Part shown: positions 36,263-57,562 of the stretch, piece by piece | How positions within the stretch are numbered: the stretch's first letter is position 1 | Layout: the number at the start of each line of letters is the position of its first letter | From: Bacteroidota bacterium | GTDB taxonomy: Bacteria; Bacteroidota; Rhodothermia; Rhodothermales; UBA10348 | DNA: 64,000 nucleotides | Assembly: GCA_027622005.1 (NCBI GenBank) | Contig: JAQBZH010000003.1 | Span: 41,532-105,531 of the forward strand | Direction of reading: 5' to 3' | Made by a program: the position numbers and the translations under genes | Notes under the pieces: generated by a model | Told to the model about the DNA's origin: nothing | The model's input: only the letters and a program-made list of their open reading frames with translations | Database searches by the model: none

Positions 36263-36278
36263 ACTTGTTATTACAAGT
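36263..36278. promoter_or_regulatory. 16-bp palindrome ACTTGTTATTACAAGT, 32 nt upstream of the YeeE start; candidate operator
   Basis: Read directly from the sequence. The identical 16-mer recurs at 57407-57422, and a same-arm variant lies at 47975-47990. The sequence is certain; the confidence value refers to the operator function. Confidence 0.55.
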
Positions 36279-36309
36279 AAGTACAAGACGCCAAAACAAC
36301 TGAGTCTAT

Positions 36310-36864
36310 ATGATTGAATTCCTTTCTCAACCGTGGCCATGGTACGTCGCAGGGCCTCTAATCGGTATCGTTGTGCCGGCTTTGCTCCTTCTAGGCGGCA
36401 AACAGTTCGGTATTTCGGAAAATCTACGCCATATGTGCGCCATGATTCCGTCCAAAGTCGAGTTATTTCAGTACGACTGGAAAAGCGGGCTGTGGAATTT
36501 GACCCTTATTTTTGGAGTCGTTCTGGGTGGGTGGATTGGAGTGACTTGGCTCGAAAATCCCGATCCGGTTGCCATTTCTGAAGCCACTCGTAGCGATCTG
36601 GCAGCGCTCGGAATCTCCAATTTTAGCGGTCTTGTGCCTTCCGAACTCTTTTCTTGGGAGAGTCTAACGAGTGGGCCTGGAATCATATTAATCGTCGTGG
36701 GCGGTTTCTTGGTCGGTTTTGGTACGCGATATGCTGGCGGATGTACCTCTGGCCACGCCATTTCGGGCCTAGCCGACCTTCAGTTGCCTTCGCTCATCGC
36801 AGTCATCGGCTTCTTTGCTGGTGGATTGATTGCGACGTATTTCCTTTTACCGATTATTCTGTGA
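36310..36864 (+). CDS. YeeE/YedE-family sulfur-compound transport protein, first half-size paralogue
   Basis: A four-to-five-TM protein with the conserved Cys motif YAGGCTSGHAISG that is typical of YeeE/YedE. Confidence 0.8.
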   Translation: MIEFLSQPWPWYVAGPLIGIVVPALLLLGGKQFGISENLRHMCAMIPSKVELFQYDWKSGLWNLTLIFGVVLGGWIGVTWLENPDPVAISEATRSDLAALGISNFSGLVPSELFSWESLTSGPGIILIVVGGFLVGFGTRYAGGCTSGHAISGLADLQLPSLIAVIGFFAGGLIATYFLLPIIL

Positions 36865-36871
36865 GGACCCA

Positions 36872-37315
36872 ATGAGCGATAAGAAACCCAACAGACCAAT
36901 GTATTTGCTGCCCTATCTGCTGATAGGCATCTATTTTGGAATCGTTTTTACCAAATCGGAAGTCATTTCCTGGTTTAGAATCCAAGAAATGTTTCGATTC
37001 CAGTCTTTTCACATGTACGGGATTATCGGAAGCGCCGTCCTAGTCGCTTTGCTTTCCGTGCAGTGGATAAAACGGACAAAGAAAAGAGATCTGGATGGCG
37101 TGGAAATCGTCATCCCACCGAAGGACATGGGCACAGGTACCCGATACTGGATGGGAGGAACCATCTTTGGACTGGGCTGGGCGCTGACGGGGGCTTGTCC
37201 CGGACCCATGTTTGCTCTCGTGGGAAATGGCATTACCGTTATGGTAGTAGCGATTGTGTCCGCCGTGGCAGGAACGTTTACGTACGGTGTGCTTCGATCC
37301 AGATTACCCCATTAA
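36872..37315 (+). CDS. YeeE/YedE-family sulfur-compound transport protein, second half-size paralogue
   Basis: ATG at 36872 (MSDKKPNRPMYLL..), 8 nt after the preceding stop. Four TM segments and the motif GWALTGACPGPMF. Confidence 0.8.
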   Translation: MSDKKPNRPMYLLPYLLIGIYFGIVFTKSEVISWFRIQEMFRFQSFHMYGIIGSAVLVALLSVQWIKRTKKRDLDGVEIVIPPKDMGTGTRYWMGGTIFGLGWALTGACPGPMFALVGNGITVMVVAIVSAVAGTFTYGVLRSRLPH

Positions 37316-37329
37316 ACAACCGACTTACT

Positions 37330-38781
37330 ATGTTATTTCGACAAATTTGGGACCCCAAGCTGGCCCAGTACGCTTACTTAATCGGATGCCAGAAAACGGG
37401 CGAAGCCATCGTTATCGATCCCGAAAGAGACATTGACACGTATCTGAAGATCGCCGCAAAAGAAGGGCTAACGATAACAGCCGCCGTAGATACGCATATC
37501 CACGCCGACTACCTTTCGGGGCTTCGAGAGTTTGCTGAGCGGGGCGTCAAAGTGTATGCCTCGGACGAAGGCGACGAGGACTGGAAATATGAATGGCTAT
37601 TGGGATCGACTTACCATCATACGTTAGTAAAACATGGAAATGTCTTTTCGATTGGAAACATCAAGTTTACCGTAGTGCATTCGCCGGGCCACACGCCAGA
37701 GCACATCGCACTGCTCGTTACCGACCTCGGAGGAGGGGCAGATCGGCCGATGGGGCTACTGAGCGGAGATTTTGTCTTTGTTGGAGATCTTGGTCGCCCC
37801 GACCTCTTGGAATCAGCTGCGGGTGTGAAGGGTGTCATGGAACCCTCAGCGCGCCGCCTTTACCACTCGGTCCAAGAGTTTTTAAAACTGGACGATTTTA
37901 TCCAGGTTTGGCCGGCACACGGGGCCGGATCAGCCTGTGGGAAAGCTTTAGGTGCCATTCCACAGTCAACTGTCGGATACGAGAGAGCGTTTAACGGCGC
38001 AATCGGAGCCGCATTGCGCGGCGAAAACGAATTTGTGGAGGCCATTCTTGACGGACAACCCGAACCACCGATGTACTTCGCACGGATGAAACGCGATAAC
38101 AAGGTGGGTCCCAAAGTGTTGGGGACCATCCCCCAGCCGAAGCACCTTTTCTGGGAAGATCTCAAAGAGCTCTCGGGTAATACATCAGTGGCCGTTTTGG
38201 ACACTCGTTTGGATCGGTCCGCCTTTATGGCTCGGCACCTTCCGGGATCGCTATACGCAGGTTTTAACAAGTCATTTAATACCGCGGCGGGCTCCGTCAT
38301 CGAAGAGGGCATGCCCATCTATTTGATTATCGAAGAAGAAAATTTGGAAGAGGCCGTACGGGATCTGATTCGCGTTGGGCTCGACAACATTGTAGGATAC
38401 GCCACTCCTTCCACCCTTGAGGCCTACGCTGATCACGGACACGAAATGGCTAGCATCCGGGAAATTCATTTTAGCGACTTGAACCAAGTCGTTGCAGCCG
38501 AAGAGGATGTGGTGATTCTGGATGTGCGTAACAAATCAGAACACGATGCGGCCCATGTGCCCGGTTGCTGCAACATCGCGTATACCCGATTGTGTCTTCG
38601 AAAAGAAGATGTGCCATCTGGTACAAAGGCGGTTCACTGCGTGTCGGGGGGCCGTTCTGCAGTTTCTGCAGCACTTCTCGCACGGTTGGGGCACGACGTT
38701 ATCTACATAAATGGAGAATTCGCCGGATGGTCCGCAAATCCGGAAAACACGATTGCTAGCACAGAAGTCGCCCATGCGTAA
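37330..38781 (+). CDS. MBL-fold persulfide-dioxygenase-like enzyme fused to two rhodanese domains (CstB/PRF-like architecture)
   Basis: ATG at 37330 (MLFRQIWDPKLAQYAYLIGC..). The MBL metal motif is VDTHIHADYLSG, with HSPGHTPEH and a later FVGD. A Cys-less rhodanese-like domain follows, then a second one with the active-site loop HCVSGGRS. The ORF-track extension back to 37063 overlaps the YeeE paralogue and was discarded. Confidence 0.8.
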   Translation: MLFRQIWDPKLAQYAYLIGCQKTGEAIVIDPERDIDTYLKIAAKEGLTITAAVDTHIHADYLSGLREFAERGVKVYASDEGDEDWKYEWLLGSTYHHTLVKHGNVFSIGNIKFTVVHSPGHTPEHIALLVTDLGGGADRPMGLLSGDFVFVGDLGRPDLLESAAGVKGVMEPSARRLYHSVQEFLKLDDFIQVWPAHGAGSACGKALGAIPQSTVGYERAFNGAIGAALRGENEFVEAILDGQPEPPMYFARMKRDNKVGPKVLGTIPQPKHLFWEDLKELSGNTSVAVLDTRLDRSAFMARHLPGSLYAGFNKSFNTAAGSVIEEGMPIYLIIEEENLEEAVRDLIRVGLDNIVGYATPSTLEAYADHGHEMASIREIHFSDLNQVVAAEEDVVILDVRNKSEHDAAHVPGCCNIAYTRLCLRKEDVPSGTKAVHCVSGGRSAVSAALLARLGHDVIYINGEFAGWSANPENTIASTEVAHA

Positions 38782-38811
38782 TTCGACGTACCGGGTACCT
38801 CGCAAAACCGT

Positions 38812-40509
38812 ATGAAGGCGTTTCCCATCACCGTTGCCCGATGGTTTCGGCCCTATGACAAGGTAAACTTTGCCGGAGATTTGAATGCCGGCATTACCGT
38901 AGGAGTCATGCTCATCCCACAAGGCATGGCATACGCCTTGATTGCTGGCCTCCCGCCCATTTACGGGCTATATGCAGCCTTTATTCCCCTTATAGTGTAT
39001 GCACTGTTAGGGACTTCCGGACAATTGGCGGTAGGACCCGCAGCGATGGTCTCGTTGTTGGTGGCAGCAAGCGTCGGCCAAATGGCTGAACCCGGCTCAA
39101 ACGCTTATCTCGAAATTGCGATTCTACTCTCGTTTTTGGTTGGAATCATTCAATTAGTCCTTGGCCTTCTGCGATTTGGATTTGTAACCAATTTCCTGTC
39201 CCATCCTGTTCTTAGTGGATTTACGAGTGCCGCTGCGATTATGATCGGAATGGCGCAGCTCAAGCATTTGTTCGGTATTCCGATTCCTGGAGATGGTACA
39301 ATCTTTGAAACCGGTTATTACGCCGTGCAAAACGTGATGTCGGTACATCCGCTCACATTGGGAATCGGTATCGGAGGCATTTTGGTCATTTGGGGGGCCA
39401 AACGAATCTCTCCCCGGGTTCCGGGAAGTATCGTAGCTGTTGCCTTGGCCACCGTCCTTGTCTATTGGGCCGGTCTCGACGAACTAGGCGTTGCCATCGT
39501 AGGAACGGTTCCCGCCGGTTTACCAAGCCCGTCGCTATCGTTTTTGTCATTTGAAAACGCACGAGATCTGTTTCCGACAGCGCTAGCTATCGCACTGGTA
39601 GGGTTTTTGGAGTCCATTGCGATCGCAAAATCATTTGCATCCAAGAATGGGTCTACCATTGACCCCAGTGCGGAGCTCGTTGCGCTAGGTCTCGCCAACG
39701 TATTCGGTTCCTTTTTCAGGTCATTTCCGGCGGCAGGAGGTTTTGCTCGATCGGCTGTCAATCAACAATCTGGCGCTAAAACAGGCTTGGCTAGCTTAAT
39801 GAGTGCCTTTGTTGTCGTACTGACCTTGCTGTTCTTTACGCCCCTGTTCACCTTTCTTCCTAAGGCTCTTTTGGCCAGCATCGTTCTCGTAGCCGTAATT
39901 AGCTTGATAGATGTGAAGGAAGTCAAATATCTTTGGCGTGTTAATCGGACCGATCTTGCGCTATTAGTTATTACCTTCGCCTCGACGCTGATTCTGGGTG
40001 TTGAAGAGGGCATATTTACGGGTTTAGTTCTTTCCCTTTTGTCGTTTGTAAACCAAGCTTCAAGACCTCATATGGCAGTGCTGGGCAAACTGCCGAACCA
40101 ACTCGTCTTCCGTAATGTCGATCGCTTTCCAGAAGCGGAGATTATTCCCGGCGTGCTCCTTTTTCGCGTGGATGCATCTCTCTTTTTTGGAAACGTGGAT
40201 GTAGTTCGAGAGGCCATCGAAAGCGCGATAGAAGGTTCGGATGATACGCGAGTTTTGGTCCTCGACCTGTATCCTGTAAATCGTATCGACTCAACAGCGT
40301 TGAATTCACTTTCCAAATTGCACGACTGGCTCGATTTGCGTCATATTTCGTTGTTTTTGTCTGGGGTCAAGGGCCCCATTCGGGATGTGTTTTCTAAAGC
40401 AGGATTGACAGATAAACTAGGCGCGGATCACTTTTTTGATCACCTGGATGCGGCATGCCAGTCTGCCAAACGAGTCCGGGATGCCTATCTTGAAAGGGAT
40501 ACTAAATGA
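38812..40509 (+). CDS. SulP-family anion (sulfate) permease with C-terminal STAS domain, copy 1
   Basis: GDLNAGITVGVMLIPQGMAYALIAGLPPIYGLYA, about 11 TM segments and a STAS region (VLLFRVDASLFFGNVD...VLDLYPVNRIDSTAL). Confidence 0.9.
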   Translation: MKAFPITVARWFRPYDKVNFAGDLNAGITVGVMLIPQGMAYALIAGLPPIYGLYAAFIPLIVYALLGTSGQLAVGPAAMVSLLVAASVGQMAEPGSNAYLEIAILLSFLVGIIQLVLGLLRFGFVTNFLSHPVLSGFTSAAAIMIGMAQLKHLFGIPIPGDGTIFETGYYAVQNVMSVHPLTLGIGIGGILVIWGAKRISPRVPGSIVAVALATVLVYWAGLDELGVAIVGTVPAGLPSPSLSFLSFENARDLFPTALAIALVGFLESIAIAKSFASKNGSTIDPSAELVALGLANVFGSFFRSFPAAGGFARSAVNQQSGAKTGLASLMSAFVVVLTLLFFTPLFTFLPKALLASIVLVAVISLIDVKEVKYLWRVNRTDLALLVITFASTLILGVEEGIFTGLVLSLLSFVNQASRPHMAVLGKLPNQLVFRNVDRFPEAEIIPGVLLFRVDASLFFGNVDVVREAIESAIEGSDDTRVLVLDLYPVNRIDSTALNSLSKLHDWLDLRHISLFLSGVKGPIRDVFSKAGLTDKLGADHFFDHLDAACQSAKRVRDAYLERDTK

Positions 40510-40539
40510 TAGGGCGTAGAAAATCGGCCAAATGAAACC

Positions 40540-42273
40540 ATGATTGCTGGAGACACGGCTAGTTCATTCTTATTGACCTGGCGCCATGGCTACAATCGGT
40601 CGCTTTTTAAGGGTGATTTATTGGCTGGGTTAACGGTTGGAGTGGTGCTAATTCCACAAGGAATGGCTTACGCATTGTTGGCTGGAGTTCCCCCTGTTTA
40701 TGGCTTGTATGCGTCGCTGGTACCGCTGATTGTTTACGTCCTGATAGGGACCTCTCGCCAGTTGGCCGTTGGGGTAGTAGCCATCGATTCCCTAGTGGTC
40801 GCAGCCGGGGTAGGCGCAATAGCACCAATCGGCTCAGATTCCTATCTGGGATACGTTATGCTTTTGGCCCTTATGGTGGGGGCCATTCAGCTGATTTTGG
40901 GCTTTTTGCGGTTTGGTTTTATGGTTAGTCTCTTGTCAAAGCCGGTGATTACCGGATTTACGGCGGCGGTAGCCATTATCATCGGAATGAGCCAATTGCA
41001 GCATTTAATGGGCTTATCGCTTGGTAGCAACTTGAATGTCTTCATTTTGCTATCGGAGGCAGCGGCCCGTCTCCAGGAAATACAACCGGCGAGCCTGATG
41101 ATTGGTGTGGGCGGAATAGTCCTGTTGATAGCGATCATGAAATGGCTGCCGCGGGTGCCGGGCCCTCTGGTTATCGTTTTGCTTTCTGCCGTATTGGTCT
41201 ATTTCGCAGACCTCGAATCCAAAGGAGTAGCTATTGTTGGAAATATTCCATCAGGACTACCAACCCCTTCATTCCCCTTGTTTTCGTATGAGGCTATTCG
41301 AGAGCTATTTCCCACGGCCGTTACGCTTTCACTGATCCAGTTCATGGGAATTATATCGTTGGGGAAAATGTTTGGGGTGAAACACGGGTACCGGGTGAAT
41401 CCAAATCGAGAACTGATGGCCCTTGGTGCCATGAATTTTGCTGGATCGGTGTTTCGCAGTATTCCGGTTTCCGTGAGCTATTCGAGAAGTGCTGTAAATG
41501 ATCTGTCCGGAGCAAAATCACCGCTGGCAAACGGCATTTCTGCCCTGCTCGTTCTGTGTACGTTGCTTTTTCTTACGCCCCTCTTTTACTACCTGCCGAT
41601 TCCCATATTCGCTTCAATCATCATGGTTGCGGCCTTTGGCCTGGTCAATTTTACTGAAGTACGATTTCTGCTCCGCACCAAGGCTGTCGATGGGATTATC
41701 GCACTTTCTACCTTTTTTGCGACCCTTGTGCTCGGTATCGAACAAGGCATGTTAGTGGGGATCGGCCTTTCGTTCGTCGCAATCATTTACCGAATTGGAA
41801 GACCTAACGTTGCCATTTTAGGCCATTTACCCAATTCAAGATCATTCCGCGACTTGGATAAACGCGGCACAGCGCATCAATTTGAGGGAATTGTGCTTAT
41901 CCGTATTGATGCATCGCTCTCGTTTGCCAACGCTGACCTTCTTCGCGATGTCATTGAGGAGCATACAGCAGATAAGAAGGTGCGAGCCGTAATTCTGGAT
42001 GCTTCTAGCGTGAATGATCTGGACACTACGGCTTTGTCGGCTTTAGCCGAAGTCAACCAGGTGCTTCGAAGGGCGGGCACCTTGTTTTATTTTGCCGGAC
42101 TCCGTCAAAAATCGCTCGATATGCTCGACTCTTCGGGGCTCATGGCAGAAGTCGGCCCTTCGCATTTTTGTTTAAGCTTGGATCAGGCAGTACTGGAAGT
42201 GCTCTCATTGTGGGGGCGGGAGAGCGAATATTTGGATCGATTAGTCGATCAGGCGTCGGCCGACTCAGCTTGA
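40540..42273 (+). CDS. SulP-family anion (sulfate) permease with C-terminal STAS domain, copy 2
   Basis: It is a paralogue of the preceding gene (GDLLAGLTVGVVLIPQGMAYALLAGVPPVYGLYA; STAS region IVLIRIDASLSFANAD...ILDASSVNDLDTTAL). Confidence 0.9.
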   Translation: MIAGDTASSFLLTWRHGYNRSLFKGDLLAGLTVGVVLIPQGMAYALLAGVPPVYGLYASLVPLIVYVLIGTSRQLAVGVVAIDSLVVAAGVGAIAPIGSDSYLGYVMLLALMVGAIQLILGFLRFGFMVSLLSKPVITGFTAAVAIIIGMSQLQHLMGLSLGSNLNVFILLSEAAARLQEIQPASLMIGVGGIVLLIAIMKWLPRVPGPLVIVLLSAVLVYFADLESKGVAIVGNIPSGLPTPSFPLFSYEAIRELFPTAVTLSLIQFMGIISLGKMFGVKHGYRVNPNRELMALGAMNFAGSVFRSIPVSVSYSRSAVNDLSGAKSPLANGISALLVLCTLLFLTPLFYYLPIPIFASIIMVAAFGLVNFTEVRFLLRTKAVDGIIALSTFFATLVLGIEQGMLVGIGLSFVAIIYRIGRPNVAILGHLPNSRSFRDLDKRGTAHQFEGIVLIRIDASLSFANADLLRDVIEEHTADKKVRAVILDASSVNDLDTTALSALAEVNQVLRRAGTLFYFAGLRQKSLDMLDSSGLMAEVGPSHFCLSLDQAVLEVLSLWGRESEYLDRLVDQASADSA

Positions 42274-43163
42274 CGCAGCTGTCGGACTACTTCGCTCGTA
42301 ATGTTCAGTTTTTTCGACCATTCGGCCGCCCAGTACGATGCGCCTTTTGATGCCCAACGATCCCACGTAGCCCGGTGCGTAGTAATTTCAGAATCCAAAA
42401 AGTCACAAACCGGGCCTAAGGCGTCATACTGCGCCGCCGATCGCAGCAAGCCCTCAATAGAACGCGATCGCGAACCAAATCCGATGGGAATTCGGTGCCG
42501 CCGGGCCTCGACGGCAAGGCTCGATTTAGTGACAAACAGGCCACTCGCTGCATGACTTGCTAGATATTCGGCAATAGCGGCAAGGTTGGTTCGTTCGTCT
42601 TCGAGGTGAAGGCCTGATTCGGGCAGCGACGGAAAGGGGGTCTGCGGTGGTAGTGGCCCACCCACCGCTTTTGGCGCGTCCAAAATGTAATCCACGACCT
42701 CTTCCAACAACAAGGCAATATGGGTCATTTCCGGAAGATCGAACGTTCCGAGTCGATCCAAAAAAGGAGGCATCCAAATCAATAACTCTTGTTTCAAATA
42801 GTCCCCAGCTTCCTGGATTCGACCATTTTCAATCAAAAAAGCTACAAATCGAAGAGAAGAGGAGAGGTGATCGGCTAATACGGACGAGGTGTCGGGTTCA
42901 AATCCTGCGGTCCACATCTTAGTCCAAACGCGCTCCGAGACGACGCTCCCCATTACGGAACCCGGCTCCAGAAAAACGGAGGCCGCGGGCATTAGTTCGT
43001 GACACAGTACCTGATAATGTGCTGCCGCGAAGTCGTCGGAAGGCTCGAAGGAAACGGTGGAACCCGATTCTTGAATCGATTTCAATTCGATCAAAGAGCG
43101 CGGAGGTCGCTCAATCAGGTCTGCTAGAACGATGAGTCTAATAGCTATGTCTTTTTCTGTCAC
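42249..43163 (-). CDS. TorD/DmsD/NarJ-like redox-enzyme maturation chaperone with an unrecognised C-terminal extension of about 120 aa
   Basis: The N-terminal ~180 aa show the TorD-family pattern (AAHYQVLCHELMPAASVFLE...FEPDTSSVLADHLSSSLRFVAFLIENG). It is the last gene of the Mo-enzyme operon. The C-terminal part matches nothing I recognise. Confidence 0.55.
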   Translation of the reverse strand: MTEKDIAIRLIVLADLIERPPRSLIELKSIQESGSTVSFEPSDDFAAAHYQVLCHELMPAASVFLEPGSVMGSVVSERVWTKMWTAGFEPDTSSVLADHLSSSLRFVAFLIENGRIQEAGDYLKQELLIWMPPFLDRLGTFDLPEMTHIALLLEEVVDYILDAPKAVGGPLPPQTPFPSLPESGLHLEDERTNLAAIAEYLASHAASGLFVTKSSLAVEARRHRIPIGFGSRSRSIEGLLRSAAQYDALGPVCDFLDSEITTHRATWDRWASKGASYWAAEWSKKLNITSEVVRQLRQAESADA

Positions 43164-43211
43164 CTTACCGGTTTTTAACGAGGCTGTCCCGTGAAATTAC
43201 AGGATCGCAGG

Positions 43212-46199
43212 CTATCGTCCGAAAGGTTTTTCGGGCAACTTGTACGCTTCTTTTACTGGCTTTAACGGCCGCTTGAGCCAATCTGGGCGCCGCGTACCGT
43301 CTGGCGAATGGTCAACGGCGCTGCGAGATAATTTTACCCATTCGTTATAGTTTTCCATAGACGCATTCGTGTCGACATAGACGTCTCCGTGCTTATCCCC
43401 TGGGGGCGCTTTCTCGACTTGATAAGCTTTTTGAAGCCAACAATGGTGCCCGGAAACCGGGTCCGGCTGGACCGCGTGAGTCAAGTTCTGGTGGACGCCT
43501 ACATCTTCCCACCAAATGCGCGAGGTATCTGGGTCAAACGATTTCCACGGCCCTGCGCCGTGATTCACCCGAAGCTTGTTTCCCTCGTCCCGGCTCTCGG
43601 TGATGGATACAAAATTTGATGCCCCGCGGCTCACTCCTTCTTCCTCTTTCAGTCTCCATCGGCCCAGGTGATGGCTCATGGCAATAACGCCCGGCTTAAT
43701 CCCTTCAGTAATCCATATTTTATCCACAAAATAGCCGATTCGGGTTGTGACTCGGATCAATTCACCCGTTTTGACACCAATTCGGGCGGCATCGACGGGG
43801 TGCATCCATACCGGATTTTTGTGACTCAACTCGTAGAGCCACTTCGCGTTGGCGCTTCGTGTGTGGATCAGCGTTGGTAGCCTAAAATTAGGTAGGAGTA
43901 ACATTTCCCCTTTCGCGCGGTCGATATTATCCGGATGGACATGGCTCTTGAGCGTCCAGGGCAGGGTGTATTCTTTCTCAGGCCAACCCCAGTCCTTCAT
44001 GGTGGAGCTGAAAAACTCCATCTTTCGACTTGGGGTAGTGAATCCGACTTTGACCTCGCCATCAATCATTACCCCGACAACCGACCCGTTTTTCAGCACG
44101 CGATCGTGCTTGTCCGTCGTTGTGCCCGCGGCATCAATCTTCTTTTCGTAGGGCACATAGTGGTCCTTCGTAATCTCAAACGCGGCGTACTTGCGCATAT
44201 ACTCGAGGGGGGTAATCCCTTCTTTCGCCGCCGCGGCAGGAAGTCCCGGCACACTGTTTTCAAAAATCCACCGGTAATATTCTTCAACGGTAATGACCTC
44301 ACCTTCGCGATAAGGACTATTGAAGTGTTTGCGGATACCAAGCGATCCGTCAGGGTCCATCGCCACCGATAGGTCAATCCAGAATTCGTTTTCCTCCCAG
44401 ACCTCGCCGGGATTGGCCTGCCAGGTAAAATCAACTTTCTTACCGAGCCGTTCCATGGCCACCCGACGAACGGGCTGTCTGAACGCAATCCATTGCCCCG
44501 CATGGGTTTCCTGGCTCATAAGGTCGTGCCGCTCGTTGGCGTGGCCCATCGGCAGGACATAGTCAGCAAACCATGCGGACTCGTTCCAGGTAGGCGTCAG
44601 CGCCACATGGCACTTCATTTTTTCCTCGTCTTGAAGCGCTCGCATCCACATAAACCCGTCCGGATTGATCCAGAGAGGGTTATAGACCCGGGTGAAATAC
44701 ACATCGATGTCACCGCGCCCTTCTTCCAGAAAGTGAGGCAAGAGGAAGCTCATTTCATAGTGCGCCAGGGGCCATTCGTGCGGCAGTTGGAGCTCATTCC
44801 AGGCATTGAACGGGGGCGGTTCTTCAAACGGTTTCGGGACAAATTTATTCCAACTGTTTCCCGACGTACCGCCCTCGGTGCCAATACTTCCGGTCAACAC
44901 ATTCAGAAATAACAGGCATCTCGCAACTTGCCAGCCTCCTAAATTGCCCACGGAAGCGCTTCGCCAGGTGTGCGTTGCGAGGCGGCCCTGGCAATTAGCA
45001 ATGGACTCGGCGGCTTCCCTGATTCGTTCGATAGGTACTTGAGACTCTTCTGCTGCCCGCTCAAACGTAAACTCGGCGTATAAGTCCTTAAGTAGCCGGT
45101 CAAAAGTCGCATAATCAGATCGATCGGCGTCTAGGTCAAACGATGACATCGAAAGTCTTTCCTTTAGTTTGTCCCAAAGCCCTTCACCGGGCAAGTCGAT
45201 CTTTACGCCGTCGTAGTTCTGGGCCTTAATTAGCTCCAGAGCATCCCTCCAATTCACCCATTTTCGGACAAATTCGCGGTCGTACAGGTCGTTTTGTATC
45301 AGATGGTTGGCAATGGCCAACAAAACGGTCTGTTCGGATCCGGGCCACGTAGGAAGCCAGGTGTCCGATTTGGAGGCCGTGTTCGAAAGGCGTGGATCAA
45401 ACGTGATTAGTTTGGCTCCGTTCTGTTTCGCCTCCATGATCCGCTGCGCGTGTGGATTGAAGTAGTGCCCCGTTTCGAGGTGGCTGGAAATGAGCAGAAT
45501 GACATTCGCTTTGGCGTGGTCGGGGCTCGGGCGGTCAAAGCCGGACCACAAATAATAGCCCGCCCTCGCCCCTGCGGAGCAAATGTTGGTGTGCGAATTG
45601 TGCCCGTCTACGCCCCATGCCTCGATCACCCGATTAGTAAAGCCGTCTTCGCCGGGACGCCCGACGTGGTACATAATACCATCCAGCCGCTTTTTGCGCG
45701 AAGCGCTCATTTTTTCGGCTATTTCCGAAACGGCTTCGTCCCAGGAAATCCTCTTCCACTTGCCCTCTCCACGTTTACCAACGCGTTTCAGCGGGTAAAG
45801 AATGCGTTCTGGATCGTAGACCTGGTTGATAGTGGCAGGGCCTTTCGCACAGTTCCTTCCTCGGCTTCCCGGGTGTTTGGGATTGCCTTCAAATTTTTTG
45901 ATCTCCAGCGTTTCCCGGTCCACGTAGGCCAGTAGACCGCAGGCACTTTCGCAATTGAAGCAGACGGTCGGGACCAACGTGTAATGACGGGCGACTTTCT
46001 TGGGCCAGGCTTTCCCATCCCACTCCACCCAGTCATTCCACAATTCGACGGGAGGATACTGACTCATCCGGCCGTCGGGATGGGTCACCGACGTCATTTC
46101 AATTTTTTGTGGCTTTTTATCCGAAATCGCAAATCGAGGTAAACCAAACGGCTGTCCGCCCACAGTAGCTTCTGGAATATCGGTGTTTTTCGTTGGCAT
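43212..46199 (-). CDS. Molybdopterin (bis-MGD) oxidoreductase catalytic subunit without a Tat signal; SoeA-like candidate
   Basis: FS0 cluster motif CFNCESACGLL-x-C (C-x2-C-x3-C-x29-C), a candidate Mo-ligand Cys in HTNICSAGARAG, and molybdopterin-binding domains throughout its 995 aa. The N-terminus MPTKNTDIPEATVGG... has no RR motif. Only 48 nt separate it from the upstream stop. Confidence 0.9.
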   Translation of the reverse strand: MPTKNTDIPEATVGGQPFGLPRFAISDKKPQKIEMTSVTHPDGRMSQYPPVELWNDWVEWDGKAWPKKVARHYTLVPTVCFNCESACGLLAYVDRETLEIKKFEGNPKHPGSRGRNCAKGPATINQVYDPERILYPLKRVGKRGEGKWKRISWDEAVSEIAEKMSASRKKRLDGIMYHVGRPGEDGFTNRVIEAWGVDGHNSHTNICSAGARAGYYLWSGFDRPSPDHAKANVILLISSHLETGHYFNPHAQRIMEAKQNGAKLITFDPRLSNTASKSDTWLPTWPGSEQTVLLAIANHLIQNDLYDREFVRKWVNWRDALELIKAQNYDGVKIDLPGEGLWDKLKERLSMSSFDLDADRSDYATFDRLLKDLYAEFTFERAAEESQVPIERIREAAESIANCQGRLATHTWRSASVGNLGGWQVARCLLFLNVLTGSIGTEGGTSGNSWNKFVPKPFEEPPPFNAWNELQLPHEWPLAHYEMSFLLPHFLEEGRGDIDVYFTRVYNPLWINPDGFMWMRALQDEEKMKCHVALTPTWNESAWFADYVLPMGHANERHDLMSQETHAGQWIAFRQPVRRVAMERLGKKVDFTWQANPGEVWEENEFWIDLSVAMDPDGSLGIRKHFNSPYREGEVITVEEYYRWIFENSVPGLPAAAAKEGITPLEYMRKYAAFEITKDHYVPYEKKIDAAGTTTDKHDRVLKNGSVVGVMIDGEVKVGFTTPSRKMEFFSSTMKDWGWPEKEYTLPWTLKSHVHPDNIDRAKGEMLLLPNFRLPTLIHTRSANAKWLYELSHKNPVWMHPVDAARIGVKTGELIRVTTRIGYFVDKIWITEGIKPGVIAMSHHLGRWRLKEEEGVSRGASNFVSITESRDEGNKLRVNHGAGPWKSFDPDTSRIWWEDVGVHQNLTHAVQPDPVSGHHCWLQKAYQVEKAPPGDKHGDVYVDTNASMENYNEWVKLSRSAVDHSPDGTRRPDWLKRPLKPVKEAYKLPEKPFGR

Positions 46200-46247
46200 G
46201 ATGTTGTCGAAGAGGGGATTGTCGGAGGCGTTTGGGGGTTAGCTGTT

Positions 46248-47897
46248 CTAGCTGTTGGGTATCTCTTGAGGAGCGTTTACAAATGCTCTTTCGTACAAAA
46301 AGAGGCCTATCAGGGCAAGAATTCCTGCCACCAAACCGGGCACGGCGGTAAACATCAGCGCTAATGGCACCACATGGCCCATCACCGTACTTCCGATCCA
46401 AAACGAGCGGGCATAGCGGCCTTTTACGATCATGTGAGCAGCTCTTGTAGCCGATTCCGAGGCGTGAGACATACCGAACTCGCCGAGAAAAGTGATCAAT
46501 AGGTCAATTATCAGGGATCCGATAAACGTGGCGTGTCCTGTAGCTACGAGTCCTTCTCCCAGGTCCATAACAGACCCCATCATCAGCAACATGGCGCTAC
46601 CTGCGACCGCCGATTGAACGATGAGGTGAATAGGGAGAAGAGGGCTTTGCCAAAGATCCCGACCTTCGGCTTGCCCAAACAAATAAGCAGTATATATCGC
46701 TGTACCAAGGCCTAGAGGCCACCCAATTAACAGCAGGGGACTTCGAAAAGAAGCCATACTCGATTCAGATATCCAGCCCATCCAAACGGAAAACTCTCCG
46801 AGGCTCCAGAGTCCAACCAAACTGGTGAATCCGATCAATATAAAGGCGCCTCGAACCAACCAGCTCCGCCACTGTGGGCGGGTTATGATCCGCAAGAAGC
46901 GCTCAGGGCGCTCTAAATCGAATACTAATAGAGCCGTGGTGGCCGCTAAAAACGCCAGTGTTACGACGGATGTGACTAAAAACACCGGATTGTTGGCCTC
47001 GACCAATCCAAACAAAAACGCAGTCCCTAGAATCAAAAACAGTCCGGCCGCGATCCCTTTCGTGACGAGATAAGCCGGAACGGGCCAGTGCCAGGGCACT
47101 TTGTGCTGGGCATTCCAAACGACCTGAGTCATTTGTTCGGCCATTCGGCCTTCGCCGATCTGAATAATCCCTCCTTTGGGGTCTCCTTGAGCCTCGGGTC
47201 GCCTCAGAGACGAGCCGGATGCCGATTTTTTGCCATAATTCGTTAGATCGGCAGGTGGCGCCCCGCGGTGCCCGTCTCCTTCGTGAAGCGAAAGGACGTC
47301 TGCCCAAGCGAAAGAATCAGGTGTTCGTTCAACGGCCGTGGGGTGCATAGCTACATCGTCGCCTCCGATGTAATACAATTTCGGAGCCGTCCCCTGCTCG
47401 GGTTTTCTAACCGTAACCTTATTGCGCGCAACGGCTTGGGCGATTTCCGTAGTAGGATCGTCCAGATCCCCAGCAAGGATGGCATGCTCCGGACAAACCA
47501 CCACACAAGCGGGCTCGAGGCCTAAATCGACTTTATGCGCGCAATAGTGGCATTTTGCGGCCGTCCCTGAGTCTGGGTCGATGTATATAGCATCGTACGG
47601 GCACGCCTGCATACACGCCTTACACCCGATACAGACATCCGGATCAAATTCTACGATTCCGTCGGTGCGCTGGTACATGGCTGTCACCGGACAAATGCGA
47701 ACACAGGGTGGATTGGCGCAGTGATTACACCGGGTAACCTGAAAATTCCGGGTCACATTGGGATACTGACCCGTCTCTACACTCTTAACCCAAGTTCGCT
47801 GTACGCCTAACGGGACTTCGTTTTCGCTTTTACAAGCTGTTGAACAGGCGTGACACCCTATGCAGGTGTCATTGTTAATTACAAAGCCGTAATTCAT
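46248..47897 (-). CDS. Fusion protein: four-cluster 4Fe-4S ferredoxin subunit (DmsB/PsrB/SoeB-like) joined to an NrfD/PsrC-type eight-TM quinone-interacting membrane subunit
   Basis: The N-terminal ~200 aa carry four Cys groups (CIGCHACSTAC, CNHCANPPC, CIGCKACMQAC, CHYCAHK..C..VCP). From about residue 270 I count eight hydrophobic helices, which is NrfD-like. There is no signal peptide. Confidence 0.85.
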   Translation of the reverse strand: MNYGFVINNDTCIGCHACSTACKSENEVPLGVQRTWVKSVETGQYPNVTRNFQVTRCNHCANPPCVRICPVTAMYQRTDGIVEFDPDVCIGCKACMQACPYDAIYIDPDSGTAAKCHYCAHKVDLGLEPACVVVCPEHAILAGDLDDPTTEIAQAVARNKVTVRKPEQGTAPKLYYIGGDDVAMHPTAVERTPDSFAWADVLSLHEGDGHRGAPPADLTNYGKKSASGSSLRRPEAQGDPKGGIIQIGEGRMAEQMTQVVWNAQHKVPWHWPVPAYLVTKGIAAGLFLILGTAFLFGLVEANNPVFLVTSVVTLAFLAATTALLVFDLERPERFLRIITRPQWRSWLVRGAFILIGFTSLVGLWSLGEFSVWMGWISESSMASFRSPLLLIGWPLGLGTAIYTAYLFGQAEGRDLWQSPLLPIHLIVQSAVAGSAMLLMMGSVMDLGEGLVATGHATFIGSLIIDLLITFLGEFGMSHASESATRAAHMIVKGRYARSFWIGSTVMGHVVPLALMFTAVPGLVAGILALIGLFLYERAFVNAPQEIPNS

Positions 47898-47913: not shown

Positions 47914-47960
47914 ATGTAGCAAAACCGTGATGTAGCAAAACCGTCATTTGGCAAAAATGT
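47914..47960. repeat. Three 15-nt direct repeats at 16-nt period, 17-63 nt upstream of the Fe-S/NrfD start codon
   Basis: ATGTAGCAAAACCGT is at 47914-47928 and 47930-47944 (both perfect), with a degenerate third copy ATTTGGCAAAAATGT at 47946-47960. On the coding strand this reads ACGGTTTTGCTACAT x2. Confidence 0.9.
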
Positions 47961-47972
47961 CGCCGAAATAGT

Positions 47973-47992
47973 CAACTTGTAATATCAAGTTG
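47973..47992. promoter_or_regulatory. Palindrome CAACTTG-TAATAT-CAAGTTG between mobA and the Mo-enzyme operon; candidate operator
   Basis: The 7-bp arms are perfect. The core ACTTG-N6-CAAGT (47975-47990) shares its arms with the 16-mers at 36263 and 57407. The sequence is certain; the function is inferred. Confidence 0.5.
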
Positions 47993-48012
47993 CATCGTCA
48001 AAAGAGCAACCT

Positions 48013-48609: not shown

Positions 48610-48801
48610 TCGTTTTTAAGTGGGTTCTGTCACTTATTGAGGTAAATAAACTCGGATTATGGTACGAAACCATCCAATACTCTTTTGTGGTTTATATTGA
48701 TTGGTAACCGCCGCGCCCCACCTGTCCGAATCGACTAGCAAACCTCTTTTGATCCGATTGTAGACGACTGAATCGGGCAAAAAGCACTCTCTAGAGAATT
48801 T

Positions 48802-49449: not shown

Positions 49450-49546
49450 TGGGTTTATCAGCTTCAAAGAAATTCTAACGCACTTTACTTAGAGATCGAA
49501 TACCGTTCCTATATTTGCGCTCCGATCTACCGATTATTAAAGCACT

Positions 49547-49927
49547 ATGGCTGAAGCCACTTTAGATACCAAACTAGCGCGCCGGGCCGAAAAGCGCATC
49601 CATGGAAAGAAGCGTCGCTCTGACAAAAAGCGCGGTCTTCCGGCCATAGTCGTGTTCTGGTTGATAGCTCCGATTGGTGCCGCGGGGGTCGCAATGCCAG
49701 TCGTTATGGACGTTCAGTGGGTTTGGCTTACGGCCGCAGCCATCGTACTTCAGATCTGGATGCTGCTCATTAATGATCGGAAAGGGTTCATTCGGTCACG
49801 CGAAATGAGGCGCGCGTATGAGGCGCGCCGTCACTTCTCCATTTTGGAGACCATCGTTTTATTCTTGTTGATTATGGCAGATATGTTAGCTGCTGCCTAC
49901 GCCCTGTTAATGGCCGCAGCTCCCTGA
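49547..49927 (+). CDS. Hypothetical membrane protein
   Basis: A basic N-terminus (KRIHGKKRRSDKKRG) is followed by three hydrophobic segments. No family is recognised. Confidence 0.5.
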   Translation: MAEATLDTKLARRAEKRIHGKKRRSDKKRGLPAIVVFWLIAPIGAAGVAMPVVMDVQWVWLTAAAIVLQIWMLLINDRKGFIRSREMRRAYEARRHFSILETIVLFLLIMADMLAAAYALLMAAAP

Positions 49928-49940
49928 GCGCGAACAAGGT

Positions 49941-52505: not shown

Positions 52506-52592
52506 GATTTTAGACGTAGATTTAGGCGGTCATAACTTTTAAGACGAACAACCAAGTTAGGCCCTCAACCCAACCACGCGCAACGACAGAGA

Positions 52593-55500: not shown

Positions 55501-55778
55501 CCGTTGAAGCGCCCATCATCACTTCTTTAGAAACCATCTTCCCAAATCCAGTTCAGTCACGAGCCGTATTAAAATGGAACTCGGCTGAGTCTTCCCGTGC
55601 ACGCGTATCCATTGTGAATATTCAAGGGCGGGAAGTGGCCACCGTTTTTGACGGCACAGTGGGCTCGGGACCGCAAGAAACGGTGATTGATGCCGTCACC
55701 TTGCCAGCCGGCGCATATTTCATCCGAATGGAGGTAGGCAATAGGATTTTGACGAAATCCTTTGTTCGAATGAGATAA
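52593..55778 (+). CDS. BNR/Asp-box repeat beta-propeller protein (sortilin-VPS10/GH74-like) with a T9SS C-terminal sorting domain
   Basis: S-x-D-x-G-x-T/S-W type repeats recur (TTDKGLSWASM, SVNGGLTWVPL, SGNGGVSWTAV, SIDSGSTWVLM, STDSGQSWKDL, LNDGATWSIA). The last ~80 aa (FPNPVQSRAVLKW....YFIRMEVGNRILTKSFVRMR) look like a type-A T9SS CTD. Confidence 0.8.
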   Translation: MEFETKTLLRPSIALWLGAFAIILFIALDTSSDVGPLATSWPQDSPDEFAAYFQGIRTAEGESAPSYGPGYRLSAYEQLQSAAKGQSATILPWLERGPGNVAGRTRAILVDMLDATRSTWIVGSVAGGIWRTTDKGLSWASMTDHLPRLSIGALAQAASKPAVMYAGTGEGYPNGDAAVGDGIFKSVNGGLTWVPLASTVGSYNFLFVNRIIVSPTDDQFVIAATNDGIYRSGNGGVSWTAVKAAGTSSGFYQVLFKPGDFSTQYAVEKARGIWKSIDSGSTWVLMNTGLPESTSNVRIELDISITNPNRLVALVENKTGPDPLYFSDNGAANWSLFSPTNTGTAIDIAGDQGWYDLAVKIHPFNPDIVFLGGVNLYRANVTGSSIQSQFTVNQNGTTSFLSFINFGGGQLGGGLRLGTDEPESTITPEKMVPVGVRFGPGKSQMAHRFVPPDQAGVAFSTYPYRNYVAVPFEVWDTKNNRQLMVSFRDRNDNGRFDLIANTTENVGREYVIIHAVPYEPETPHPSIARNGGIVTDLAYFFWPTLAPGAIWDPTSLPVSKLEFFWVNVPSLSGSITQIGTGVHADQHIIIASPSAGTEFELLVGNDGGISYSGDGGANWIDRDRGYNTTQYYGIDKKPGLSVYVGGTQDNGSWRSFGDPTPSQFWQNAGSGDGFDAVWHKQNDQKILTTSQWNWIQRSVNGGQSWTSASSGITDTGTSVAGAQFLTILAQDPTNSENVYTVGRSGVWRTTDFASSWSLSSIAPESWGFDEVVRSAKITVSLKSPNVVWAGAEMDAVPSSGTDKDGKLQLSTDKGVTFSSVPTPSIAPGRLSGLATSFEGAETVYVLFSASNRAKILRSTDSGQSWKDLSGFDPGPDGLISQNGFPDVSVYDLLDFPNSTRLWAATEIGLIESLNDGATWSIANNGLPAVSIWQIRKLDDEIVLATHGRGIWTVPASSIPPVSEIFTNVEPVEAPIITSLETIFPNPVQSRAVLKWNSAESSRARVSIVNIQGREVATVFDGTVGSGPQETVIDAVTLPAGAYFIRMEVGNRILTKSFVRMR

Positions 55779-55857
55779 CGCAAAAAAAGGGAATTTATTC
55801 GTAATTGAGAGCAGGACCTGTCGACGAGCCGCCGCTTCTCACTTTCGTCCAGAATTT

Positions 55858-56889
55858 TTGGAGTCCCTCGCTCCATATAGCCACGTGCTCGACAAAATCA
55901 TTTCTATTGTTTCTGCTTCTACGCGCTTGACAGCCTCGCGGAGCCGAATACTGGCCATTTGGGCCCTTTTCCTGTTTTCATCCGCCCATTTCGCATCCAC
56001 GGCCCGGGCGCAGGACGTTCGTGTCGTTCACGCTATCGAACTCAATCGGGACGGCCGCTATACAGCGAACGTGATGGTCACCAATATGACCAGTACGACC
56101 ATTCGGAATTGGACTATGACCTTTCGGATGACCACGTCCGTTGAATCCATCAATCACGTCGGTTGGAGTCAATTTCAAGGCGCTTTTACCGTCAATGGGC
56201 GCGGATGGACTAAGGAAATCGCTCCTGGTGACGTGGTTTGGTTCACCATTAGTGGACTTTCATACAATAATGTGGTTGAGGTCCCTAGAAACTGCTTTTT
56301 TAATGGAACGGCTTGCGTCGTTTCTGGAGCACCTCAGCCAGTCCTGGCAGCCGCGAGGCCTGACCAGATGATAGTCTCGGCATGGATCGATAAATCCGAC
56401 GCCACTACGTATTCGGGCTACATTGCCATCCTCAATCCTACGGCCTTGAAGTTTCCCGCTTTGTGGGACCTAAAGTTTTCGACTCCATCGCTATTGGTGG
56501 AATTAAAGGAGGTTATCTGGTCGAGATCCGGCTCAGATTATCAAGTTTATGGACATGCCCACACGGATTATATCGATGCGGGCGATTTTGTATTGATTCC
56601 CATCAGAGGGGTCCATACTGGTACGCCTGCCCTTCCCTCGAATTGCCGACTAAACGGGGTAGCATGTACCTTTAAAACGCCCGATAGCCTTATTGAAACG
56701 CCCTGGATCAATGTGGATATCAAGATGGCAGAGTTTACCAAGTCCATTTGGGAAGGGTACATCCGCATTGAAAATCCAACCAATTACGAACTCGATTCAT
56801 GGACCTTACGGTTTGACCTCGCTGAGACCATCACCGAAATGGCTGGGCGCCATCATGCAAGGAACGGCGTCCATGAAGCAAATGCTTGA
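55858..56889 (+). CDS. Secreted protein with two complete CBM2-like modules and a truncated third
   Basis: The signal peptide is RILAIWALFLFSSAHFASTARA; the start is TTG at 55858 or, more likely, TTG at 55927. Each module runs ...V.V.N.T...I..WT..F... and ends PRNCFFNGTACV / PSNCRLNGVACT, as in carbohydrate-binding module family 2. The third module stops mid-domain. Confidence 0.55.
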   Translation: MESLAPYSHVLDKIISIVSASTRLTASRSRILAIWALFLFSSAHFASTARAQDVRVVHAIELNRDGRYTANVMVTNMTSTTIRNWTMTFRMTTSVESINHVGWSQFQGAFTVNGRGWTKEIAPGDVVWFTISGLSYNNVVEVPRNCFFNGTACVVSGAPQPVLAAARPDQMIVSAWIDKSDATTYSGYIAILNPTALKFPALWDLKFSTPSLLVELKEVIWSRSGSDYQVYGHAHTDYIDAGDFVLIPIRGVHTGTPALPSNCRLNGVACTFKTPDSLIETPWINVDIKMAEFTKSIWEGYIRIENPTNYELDSWTLRFDLAETITEMAGRHHARNGVHEANA

Positions 56890-57397
56890 TCAGATTAAGA
56901 AACTGCAGGAATTTGAGCGGGGCGGCCATGCTCTTCGACTCATGCCGGTATCGATCGTAGGTGTTTTATCAGACGTCATTGGGGACGTTGCCACGTACTT
57001 CAAAGGTGCGGTGCCGATCTATTTTGACCCTCAACCCTGCATGAACGCCAAAGTCCAAGTGGATCTAGCGTTTTTGCCCGGAGTCTTTAAGAATCTGCTG
57101 AAAAATGCTGTTGAACACATTATTTCGCTGGACGACTCCGCCCGTAGAGTCGATGTGTATTGCAGCAGTGAACCCGGTTTTGTGGTCATTTCGGTACATA
57201 ACGGCGGAGAAACCGTGCCTCCCGAGCGAATTGCGACCTTTTTCGACAAGTTCAATACCACCAAGGCGAACGACGGGGGAACGGGACTCGGTACCACCTA
57301 TGCACGACTGGTAACTGAAGCGCGCGGCGGATCGATATCCGCTTGGTCAAGCGCAGAAAGAGGGACGCTCGTCTCTGTTCGATTACCATTGGTCTAA
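56855..57397 (+). CDS. Histidine-kinase catalytic (HATPase_c) fragment lacking the H-box; possible gene remnant
   Basis: N-box FKNLLKNAVEH, the region VHNGGETVPPERIATFFDKFNTTK and G2-box GGTGLGTTYARLV are preceded only by the distal part of a DHp helix (MLDQIKKLQEFERGGHALRLMPVSIV). No phospho-acceptor His region is present. Its 5' end overlaps the preceding ORF by 35 nt in another frame. Confidence 0.45.
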   Translation: MQGTASMKQMLDQIKKLQEFERGGHALRLMPVSIVGVLSDVIGDVATYFKGAVPIYFDPQPCMNAKVQVDLAFLPGVFKNLLKNAVEHIISLDDSARRVDVYCSSEPGFVVISVHNGGETVPPERIATFFDKFNTTKANDGGTGLGTTYARLVTEARGGSISAWSSAERGTLVSVRLPLV

Positions 57398-57406
57398 CAG
57401 CATCGT

Positions 57407-57422
57407 ACTTGTTATTACAAGT
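57407..57422. promoter_or_regulatory. 16-bp palindrome ACTTGTTATTACAAGT upstream of the GntR gene; candidate auto-operator
   Basis: It is identical to the 16-mer at 36263-36278. A half-conserved second copy, ACTTGTCATCACACGT, lies at 57483-57498, 65 nt before the GntR ATG. Confidence 0.55.
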
Positions 57423-57562
57423 CACACCATCACCCCGCATATTCGGGAGTTAATATGGCAACATTTCCGTTGGTTGCGTAGTACTTGTCATCACACGTAG
57501 TGGTTTATGTTTTAACCCTACTTTGTTGACAAAAGGACCCCGAAATAAGTCCGATACTGATT

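Follow-up and report, generated by a model that had tools for sequence, protein, structure and literature searches.

The 64-kb stretch of contig JAQBZH010000003.1 analysed here as a whole (a Bacteroidota bacterium of the order Rhodothermales, assembly GCA_027622005.1), hereafter the window, carries three exact copies and one near copy of the palindrome ACTTG-N6-CAAGT. They stand upstream of a sulfur-handling operon, of a molybdenum (Mo)-enzyme operon and of the gene for a GntR/HutC-family regulator. Judged from sequence comparisons, the 16-bp palindrome is most probably the operator of this regulator, which would co-control both operons and its own gene. The initial annotation had proposed the same arrangement, and conservation, enrichment, gene neighbourhood, phyletic pattern and a NagR-like operator architecture all speak in its favour.

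Gene content of the locus

The gene map (Table 1) is based on a listing of open reading frames (ORFs) and on Pfam and NCBIfam scans, which agree with the gene context described earlier: YeeE, persulfide dioxygenase (PDO)-rhodanese and SulP genes behind the first copy of the palindrome, the Mo-enzyme operon behind the second and the GntR gene behind the third. The gene order of operon 1 is shared by four related loci (L006, L007, L008 and L095). About 10 kb beyond operon 2 lie a fragment of a histidine-kinase gene, sites 3 and 3b, the regulator gene, moeA and pgi. The regulator gene was also correctly described as convergent with and overlapping moeA, the overlap being 41 nucleotides (nt; 58332-58372).

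Table 1 Putative operators and genes of the window (FeS, iron-sulfur; MBL, metallo-beta-lactamase; Tat, twin-arginine translocation)
Feature	Position	Strand	Description or basis
Operator 1	36263..36278	.	ACTTGTTATTACAAGT, perfect consensus
Operator 2	47975..47990	-	Plus-strand letters ACTTGTAATATCAAGT; gene orientation ACTTGATATTACAAGT
Operator 3, putative distal autoregulatory site	57407..57422	.	ACTTGTTATTACAAGT, 140 nt 5' of regulator start codon
Operator 3b, putative proximal autoregulatory site	57483..57498	.	ACTTGTCATCACACGT, 64 nt 5' of regulator start codon
Target operon 1 as a whole	36310..42273	+	Pfam and NCBIfam matches
YeeE/YedE half-proteins (two)	36310-36864; ORF 36830-37315	+	Pfam/NCBIfam
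PDO (MBL fold)-rhodanese fusion	37330-38781	+	Pfam/NCBIfam, start codon read
SulP/STAS permeases (two)	38812-40509; 40540-42273	+	Pfam/NCBIfam
Target operon 2 as a whole	42249..47897	-	Pfam/NCBIfam; converges on operon 1
FeS-NrfD fusion protein	47897-46248	-	Pfam/NCBIfam
Mo-bisPGD catalytic subunit	46199-43212	-	995 aa, without Tat signal; Pfam/NCBIfam
TorD/NarJ-like chaperone	43163-42249	-	Pfam/NCBIfam
GntR/HutC-family regulator gene	57563..58372	+	269 aa; Pfam GntR 2.5e-20, UTRA 1.7e-34
recJ	34448-36229	+	ORF listing, Pfam/NCBIfam
mobA	48609-48013	-	5' of operator 2, same strand
moeA	59627-58332	-	Convergent with regulator gene

Copies of the palindrome in the window

Exact matches to ACTTG-N6-CAAGT start at 36263, 47975 and 57407, whereas 0.01 matches would be expected from 100 dinucleotide-preserving shuffles of the window, none of which reached three. 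When one mismatch was allowed, only the site at 57483-57498 was added. Pattern search and reading of the sequence thus return the same four sequences and coordinates that had been listed before, when no further copy was seen in the intergenic regions. A scan with a position weight matrix derived from 60 related sites extends this to the entire window, as only the four known positions score above 15 bits and no fifth copy was found, the runner-up (11.4 bits) lying within a coding region. Comparison of the operators in relatives gave ACTTGTnATnACAAGT as the refined 16-bp consensus. Operator 2, read in gene orientation, departs from it once, at position 6 (the A6 variant).

Operator 1 is situated 31 nt 5' of the start codon of the yeeE-like gene (36310) and 33 nt 3' of the recJ stop codon, and operator 2 lies 77 nt 5' of the FeS-NrfD start codon (47897, minus strand) and 22 nt 3' of the mobA stop codon. 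Since operator 2 lies downstream of mobA, it would mark an internal promoter for the FeS-NrfD, Mo and TorD genes and not one for mobA. Site 3 starts 10 nt past the stop codon of the preceding histidine-kinase gene, and operator 3b stands immediately 5' of a conserved CTACTTTGTT block.

Two further elements were seen next to these sites. A hairpin, TTCCCAAAGCCTTTGGGAA, occupies 36243-36261 between the recJ stop codon and operator 1, abuts the operator and is flagged as terminator-like by the scan; it may keep transcription of recJ from running into the yeeE promoter. Between operator 2 and the start codon of the FeS-NrfD gene, the leader holds a 16-nt tandem repeat, ATGTAGCAAAACCGTC, in 2.7 copies with 88% matches (47914-47956). 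Its absence from L010, a related locus, suggests that it arose recently by local duplication.

Conservation and enrichment in related genomes

Homologs of the regulator in public sources carry Rhodothermales names. Regulator orthologs were aligned, and a scan of the GTDB species genomes with this alignment yielded 80 loci, of which 79 were used in the regulator-locus counts, from Rhodothermales, from Salinibacter, Salinivenus and Longibacter, from Balneolaceae and Gemmatimonadota and from a few Verrucomicrobia. These loci, with flanks of 10 kb, were annotated by tblastn with the window proteins and then scanned for the consensus. A second set (L006, L007, L008, L095) was fetched via the Mo subunit (83-97% identity) and shows the same synteny.

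Within the window and the non-redundant loci (1.35 Mb in total), 62 sites with at most two mismatches were observed while 1.6 are expected in Markov-randomised sequence. The large majority (55 of 62) fall within 350 nt 5' of a start codon, namely that of GntR (25), FeS-NrfD (13), YeeE (13), SQR-like (3) or PDO (1) genes. Control upstream regions from the same loci (MoeA, PGI, MobA, NUDIX, Mo subunit, TorD and SulP) nearly all show 5-7 mismatches, their best match having four, once for TorD and once for PGI. Counted by upstream region, a site with at most two mismatches precedes 13 of 21 YeeE genes and 14 of 19 FeS-NrfD genes, with both Chloroflexi loci among the failures, and a site with at most three mismatches precedes the regulator gene in 41 of 79 loci, where the background is again 5-7 mismatches.

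The seven remaining sites are distributed as follows. Three lie 5' of Tll0287-like-DUF1641-SQR operons in Salinivenus, one 5' of the FeS gene of Rhodocaloribacter litoris, one 5' of a gene for an unknown protein that is followed by COX1, and one (L052:268) 389 nt 5' of the regulator gene, a little beyond the 350-nt limit. The last, L015:6091, has two mismatches and sits inside a 1581-codon ORF; it was rejected as a probable chance match. The Salinivenus motif loci are L041:10981, L062:7512, L050:8044 and L049:9768, and one of them precedes a 201-aa unknown gene and then COX1 (haem-copper oxidase subunit I), which hints that the regulon may reach a terminal oxidase.

The sites recur at equivalent positions. 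Those upstream of yeeE were found in L006 (21439), L007 (21088), L008 (11960) and L095 (21184), and those upstream of FeS-NrfD in L006 (8195), L007 (8306) and L095 (8124). The A6 variant likewise precedes FeS-NrfD genes in L007, L010, L016, L020, L022, L025, L042, L091 and L095. Orthologs of the distal regulator-upstream site are present in L001 (9823), L009 (9821), L010 (9841), L012 (9809) and L043 (9787), and those of the proximal site in L001 (9900), L009 (9916), L010 (9917), L013 (4323), L043 (9936) and L004 (108). Regulator loci at 86% and 70% protein identity retain both upstream sites amid diverged surrounding sequence. In L001 the operators read GCTTGTTATCACAAGC, with both outer bases changed and the palindrome preserved, and ACTTGTCATAACACGT; in L004 they read CTTGTAATGACAAGT (at the contig edge) and CCTGTCATTACACGT. 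Alignments of orthologous promoters show the operator as the conserved block between diverging flanks, so that the comparative footprinting suggested at the outset supports conservation at promoters. The possibility raised alongside it, that the motif is a dispersed repeat also found inside genes, finds no counterpart in the loci scanned beyond the single intragenic match in L015.

A fourth kind of position, upstream of an SQR-like gene, is occupied in L006 (13064), L007 (13074), L008 (3664) and L095 (12946). In all relatives examined, this gene (a Pyr_redox_2 flavoprotein of 400 aa) and its operator separate the Mo-subunit gene from the TorD-like one. In the window, both have been removed by a clean deletion of about 1.37 kb at 43163-43212, and no SQR-like gene was found elsewhere within its 64 kb. 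L095, whose Mo subunit is 97% identical, keeps the operator (site 12946, ACTTGTCATTACATGT; reference segment L095:12892-14298), and across the deletion junction the flanks of the window and L095 align base for base.

A regulon for biosynthesis of the Mo cofactor (Moco), comprising moeA and mobA, was considered and rejected, as neither gene has a site upstream in the loci scanned.

The regulator gene and its genomic company

The N-terminus of the regulator is a GntR winged helix-turn-helix domain (PF00392, residues 9-70) and the C-terminus a UTRA effector domain of the chorismate-lyase fold (PF07702, residues 92-230; E-values in Table 1). The closest solved structures are NagR/YvoA (E = 2e-33) and DasR, both aligned over the full length. 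A total of 1221 homologs were found at E <= 1e-20, and orthologs from Rhodothermales, Salinibacteraceae, Balneolaceae and Gemmatimonadota share 50-86% identity. The verrucomicrobial homologs belong to acidophilic methanotrophs (Methylacidiphilum, Methylacidimicrobium and relatives).

While the loci were chosen by regulator homology alone, 37 of the 79 have a homolog of a target gene no more than 10 kb away, in 17 the distance is at most 400 nt, and where the regulator adjoins a target gene the gap usually holds a site. The regulator is followed by a site and then by the FeS-NrfD, Mo and TorD genes in L022, L025, L026, L039 and L042; it stands next to yeeE/PDO in L033, L038, L046, L048, L070 and L081, and next to SQR in L041, L050, L060 and L062. 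Around the sites of some 90 loci no other DNA-binding protein is conserved, and among regulators the HutC gene alone accompanies the target operons, which it does in four phylum-level groups.

Loci of Chloroflexi that share the Mo enzyme and the sulfur genes are devoid of sites, even when three mismatches are allowed. In one of them (L090), a HisKA_3/GerE two-component pair and not a GntR gene lies beside the sulfur/Mo genes, which form a single operon (TusA-FeS/NrfD-Mo-PDO-rhodanese-YeeE-TorD-SulP). A CsoR-family gene precedes the FeS-NrfD/Mo operon of Thermomicrobium roseum; its product has two Cys and no metal-ligand His and is thereby CstR-like. On plasmid pRHL3 of Rhodococcus jostii a DsrE-TusA-FeS/NrfD-Mo operon is found amid PDO-like MBL genes and ArsR/SmtB regulators. 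Rhodocaloribacter litoris has both the regulator ortholog and the site. It and Roseithermus sacchariphilus are cultivable carriers of the regulator, represented by L091 (CP076718) and L048 (CP030158), respectively. As the motif is gone where the sulfur module is paired with other regulators, the palindrome appears to follow the HutC type. This fits a sulfur-responsive regulon whose module of sulfur and Mo genes stays constant while the type of regulator would be exchanged between lineages.

DNA recognition and the effector domain

In structures of NagR with DNA the half-sites are six nucleotides apart, Arg48 contacts G-4, Arg38 contacts G-5 (where T is frequent in natural half-sites) and Gly69 of the wing reaches position -7 in the minor groove (PMC4333415). 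The equivalents of Arg48 and Gly69 in the present regulator, Arg44 and Gly65, are each invariant in all 80 orthologs, and 119 of 120 operator half-sites carry G-4. The Arg38 equivalent, Asn34, is N, K, S, H or A among the 80 orthologs and in no case Arg; at -5 the operator has T. In silico, the consensus ACTTGTnATnACAAGT holds the GntR-type GT...AC core in the form GT-nATn-AC. By analogy, this architecture is consistent with the dre site of NagR and DasR, which are members of the HutC family.

The sugar-phosphate site of NagR, occupied by a sulfate ion in one crystal form, consists of Arg133, Arg135 and Ser165-Ile166-Tyr167. Its counterpart in the regulator is formed by Arg129, Arg131, Ser/Thr162, Ile163 and Tyr164, with both arginines kept in 79-80 of 80 orthologs, Thr or Ser always found at position 162, and Ile163 and Tyr164 kept in 75-76. 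The positions that contact the sugar and acetyl groups in NagR (Glu222, Ala224 and Ser226) correspond to Tyr219, an invariant Gln221 and an invariant Arg223. No cysteine column is conserved among the 80 orthologs (at most 13 share one), and none is near-invariant in a set of 30 orthologs either. Because of this, the thiol-crosslink mechanism of CstR, SqrR and FisR is, as far as the alignments tell, excluded as a general mechanism for this regulator. If the protein senses sulfur status, sensing must then proceed through a ligand in the UTRA domain. With the oxyanion site conserved and conserved cysteines absent, this ligand may be hypothesised to be a small anion, and sulfite or thiosulfate, the products of PDO-rhodanese, would be obvious candidates. 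Organosulfonates look less likely as effectors than inorganic sulfur species because the regulon consists of SQR, PDO-rhodanese, YeeE and a SoeABC-like enzyme.

A C-V-C motif (C174/C176) in the UTRA domain is limited to the closest clade of the regulator. Cysteine-based sensing through this CxC at 174/176 was rejected, as no more than 9-11 of 80 orthologs have it and the 86%-identical P0002 does not; a redox input specific to that clade is conceivable.

Promoter layout and proposed mechanism

Operators are typically found 13-77 nt from the start codons of their target genes. In the alignment of yeeE promoters the operator is placed between a conserved GGGAAC block and a conserved TAnTACAAG block. 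In that of FeS-NrfD promoters a GGTTGC element about 20 nt 5' of the operator is kept in the window (47996-48012, minus-strand orientation), L007, L010 and L016, and the operator centre, GATATT, would therefore fall at the position expected for a -10 element. The sequence TACAAG at 36283-36288 repeats the right half-site of operator 1 one helical turn (10 bp) downstream, and TAnTACAAG is kept in L006-L008; this extra copy might serve cooperative binding as a third half-site, or else act as a promoter element.

Characterised members of the HutC family (NagR, DasR, HutC, PhnF and TreR) are repressors. Together with the operator positions, this favours repression by promoter occlusion, and we consider repression with derepression by a sulfur-derived anion somewhat more likely than not. 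In the mechanism that we infer, a regulator dimer would bind each operator with one winged-helix domain per half-site; Arg44 would contact the invariant G in every TTGT half-site, and the wing with Gly65 would lie in the minor groove. With operators over or right beside the core promoters, bound regulator would repress three units: yeeE-yeeE'-PDO/rhodanese-sulP-sulP, the operon of the presumably cytoplasm-facing FeS-NrfD/Mo-bisPGD/TorD-like enzyme, and the regulator's own gene, the latter by negative autoregulation via two operators 76 bp apart. The fourth operator of the relatives, lost from the present genome, would control the SQR-like gene. A small anionic metabolite derived from sulfur would enter the Arg-rich UTRA pocket and free the repressor from DNA, and its release would induce the whole module that leads from sulfide over persulfide and sulfite or thiosulfate to sulfate.

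Several observations weigh against this reading or limit its firmness, while the existence of the motif, its degree of conservation and enrichment and its association with the regulator gene are computational results. Because sites and weight matrix alike were gathered by similarity to the consensus, the conservation per position is inflated. Among the upstream regions of the regulator gene, 23 of 79 are without a recognisable site, as are some target upstream regions (e.g. those of FeS-NrfD in L021 and L024), and no clear pattern of covariation between residue 34 (N/K/S/H/A) and the operator bases at positions 3-4 was found across clades. The verrucomicrobial homologs (51-55% identical; L063, L068, L072 and L076) show no site, and no target gene lies in their 10-kb surroundings; they may have a paralogous function and are excluded from the regulon claim. 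No sigma-70-type promoter was found beside any site in the orientation of the target gene, the single match being on the opposite strand. Such a lack of sigma-70 consensus promoters is as expected for a Bacteroidota-like lineage, and promoter overlap or occlusion is instead deduced from conserved blocks and start-codon distances. A site 5' of the regulator gene, finally, would be equally expected were the regulator merely a target of another factor.

This last point leads to the alternative that some other factor, encoded elsewhere, has the palindrome as its operator, with the HutC gene as just another member of its regulon. The autoregulatory site alone does not establish autoregulation, and the regulator upstream regions without a site would agree with such a factor. 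However, the HutC gene is the only conserved candidate near the sites and the only one to accompany the target operons over phylum-level distances, the motif vanishes where this gene gives way to other regulators, and a 16-bp layout with G at -4 fits the winged-helix recognition seen in NagR. Control by another factor is thus quite improbable. That the HutC protein binds the sites as an activator or dual regulator, or senses a cue other than sulfur such as Moco status or anaerobiosis, is also unlikely, if slightly less so. Convergence of the regulator gene on moeA in the window and close relatives and the position of mobA directly before operator 2 could point to such a cue, but the best matches upstream of moeA and mobA have 5-7 mismatches, and in distant genomes the regulator quits moeA and adjoins yeeE/PDO, SQR or Mo-enzyme genes. 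Activation is at odds with the distances of the operators from start codons, which are those of repressor sites, and with the general behaviour of HutC members; the -10-like position of the FeS-NrfD operator centre relative to GGTTGC also favours repression, although it does not prove it.

A further reading takes the palindromes for chance matches, for copies of a dispersed repeat, or for RNA or terminator hairpins to which no protein binds. Site 3 begins very close to the histidine-kinase stop codon and its 5-bp stem could in principle fold, but the arms, rich in A and T, span no more than 5-6 bp, and no T-run follows them. Moreover, the number of copies expected by chance in the window is negligible, the sole copy within an annotated gene is the two-mismatch site of L015, and the sites are kept at orthologous promoters while the flanks diverge, so that this explanation is effectively refuted.

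The molybdoenzyme and the sulfur pathway

The Mo subunit matches the Pfam families Molybdop_Fe4S4, Molybdopterin and Molydop_binding, and its N-terminus (MPTKNTDIPEATVGG...) has no twin-arginine motif. As a Tat signal is missing and the FeS domain is N-terminal to the NrfD helices in the fusion protein, both the Mo and FeS modules are predicted to face the cytoplasm. The subunit reached no NCBIfam equivalog, with PhsA as top match far below its cut-off, and NCBIfam is without a SoeA model; a search for a specific name in NCBIfam, source names and the plasmid annotation returned generic names only, while the gene neighbourhood of the plasmid matches proved informative. Mo subunits of Rhodothermales and Chloroflexi are at least 70% identical, and the Chloroflexi copies are more than 73% identical to that of the window; L090, L092 and L094 were among the loci compared. 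Proteins from Thermomicrobium, from Rhodococcus and from plasmids of haloarchaea share 50-57% identity with the enzyme, and the one proteobacterial plasmid match is only about 30% identical.

In other phyla the Mo enzyme always occurs amid genes for TusA, DsrE, PDO, rhodanese and YeeE (also SulP), while the type of regulator beside it differs by phylum (CsoR/CstR-like, ArsR/SmtB, two-component or HutC). This constant company supports a sulfur compound as its probable substrate. In the proposed pathway, SQR would convert sulfide to sulfane sulfur, PDO-rhodanese would convert persulfide to sulfite and thiosulfate, transporters of the YeeE/YedE and SulP types would move sulfur anions, and the Mo enzyme would perform the last oxidative step. 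With a sulfite-oxidising role that is putative and no curated model that recognises it, the enzyme is designated SoeABC-like and not SoeABC.

Comparison with known systems

Like the sulfite:quinone oxidoreductase SoeABC of Allochromatium vinosum and Aquifex aeolicus, the enzyme of operon 2 is an iron-sulfur molybdoenzyme of three modules with an NrfD-type anchor, its Mo and FeS modules are without export signals, and its genomic context includes a sulfite-producing PDO. SoeAB has been proposed to face the cytoplasm, and a published survey of SoeC lists neither Bacteroidota nor Rhodothermota (PMC8076601). Unlike in SoeABC, FeS and NrfD are fused in the window enzyme, while they are separate in R. 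litoris. Shared control by the regulator would tie this conserved (more than 70% identity across phyla) and unannotated clade of molybdoenzymes to sulfur oxidation.

The regulator resembles NagR (YvoA) of Bacillus subtilis and DasR of Streptomyces, repressors that act at palindromic dre operators, in its combination of a GntR winged helix with a UTRA domain, in a 16-bp palindrome of the same register and in the retained G-4-reading Arg, wing Gly and oxyanion site. It differs from them in the half-site, which is CTTGT here and GTGGT there, in the replacement of Arg38 by Asn, Lys, Ser or His, and in its regulon, as NagR and DasR respond to N-acetylglucosamine 6-phosphate and govern amino-sugar catabolism whereas sulfur oxidation is the common theme here. 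Identity with NagR/DasR was rejected, since the best NCBIfam match (about 130 bits) is below all curated cut-offs, Arg38 is lost and the targets are sulfur genes. The repressor-operator logic appears conventional for the HutC family, and what would be new is a coherent and phylogenetically broad sulfur regulon. Mechanistically, it remains conventional unless the effector proves to be an inorganic sulfur species.

To our knowledge, persulfide sensing by cysteine chemistry is common to all bacterial regulators of sulfide oxidation that are well characterised (CstR, SqrR/BigR and FisR). No GntR/HutC regulator of sulfide, sulfite or persulfide metabolism was found in open-access papers and preprints, an absence that is not proof. 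The HutC protein is functionally analogous to the repressors CstR and SqrR/BigR and the activator FisR in the kinds of genes it is linked to (SQR, persulfide dioxygenase, rhodanese and transporters of the YeeE/TauE type), and genes for CstR- and ArsR-type regulators hold the equivalent place by the Mo module in Thermomicrobium and Rhodococcus. In CstR (CsoR family), SqrR/BigR (ArsR family) and FisR, paired conserved cysteines become joined by di- to tetrasulfide links (PMC9774590). In contrast to these proteins, the regulator described here has an unrelated fold and no conserved sensing cysteine. Perhaps, and this is put forward tentatively as a possibility that falls somewhat short of even odds, the HutC protein is a cysteine-independent sensor of sulfur status whose UTRA domain binds sulfite, thiosulfate or a persulfide-bearing cofactor. 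It would then have replaced CstR/SqrR as master regulator of sulfide and sulfite oxidation in Rhodothermota, Salinibacteraceae, Balneolaceae and Gemmatimonadota, and would control an uncharacterised clade of cytoplasm-facing molybdoenzymes that completes the oxidation to sulfate. The regulator, its operator and the candidate ligands offer a direct handle on the sulfur species that these widespread marine, hypersaline and soil bacteria monitor. Control of SQR, PDO-rhodanese, YeeE, SulP and a SoeABC-like enzyme by a ligand-binding HutC protein would, if true, represent a sensor mechanistically different from the thiol-based CstR, SqrR/BigR and FisR.

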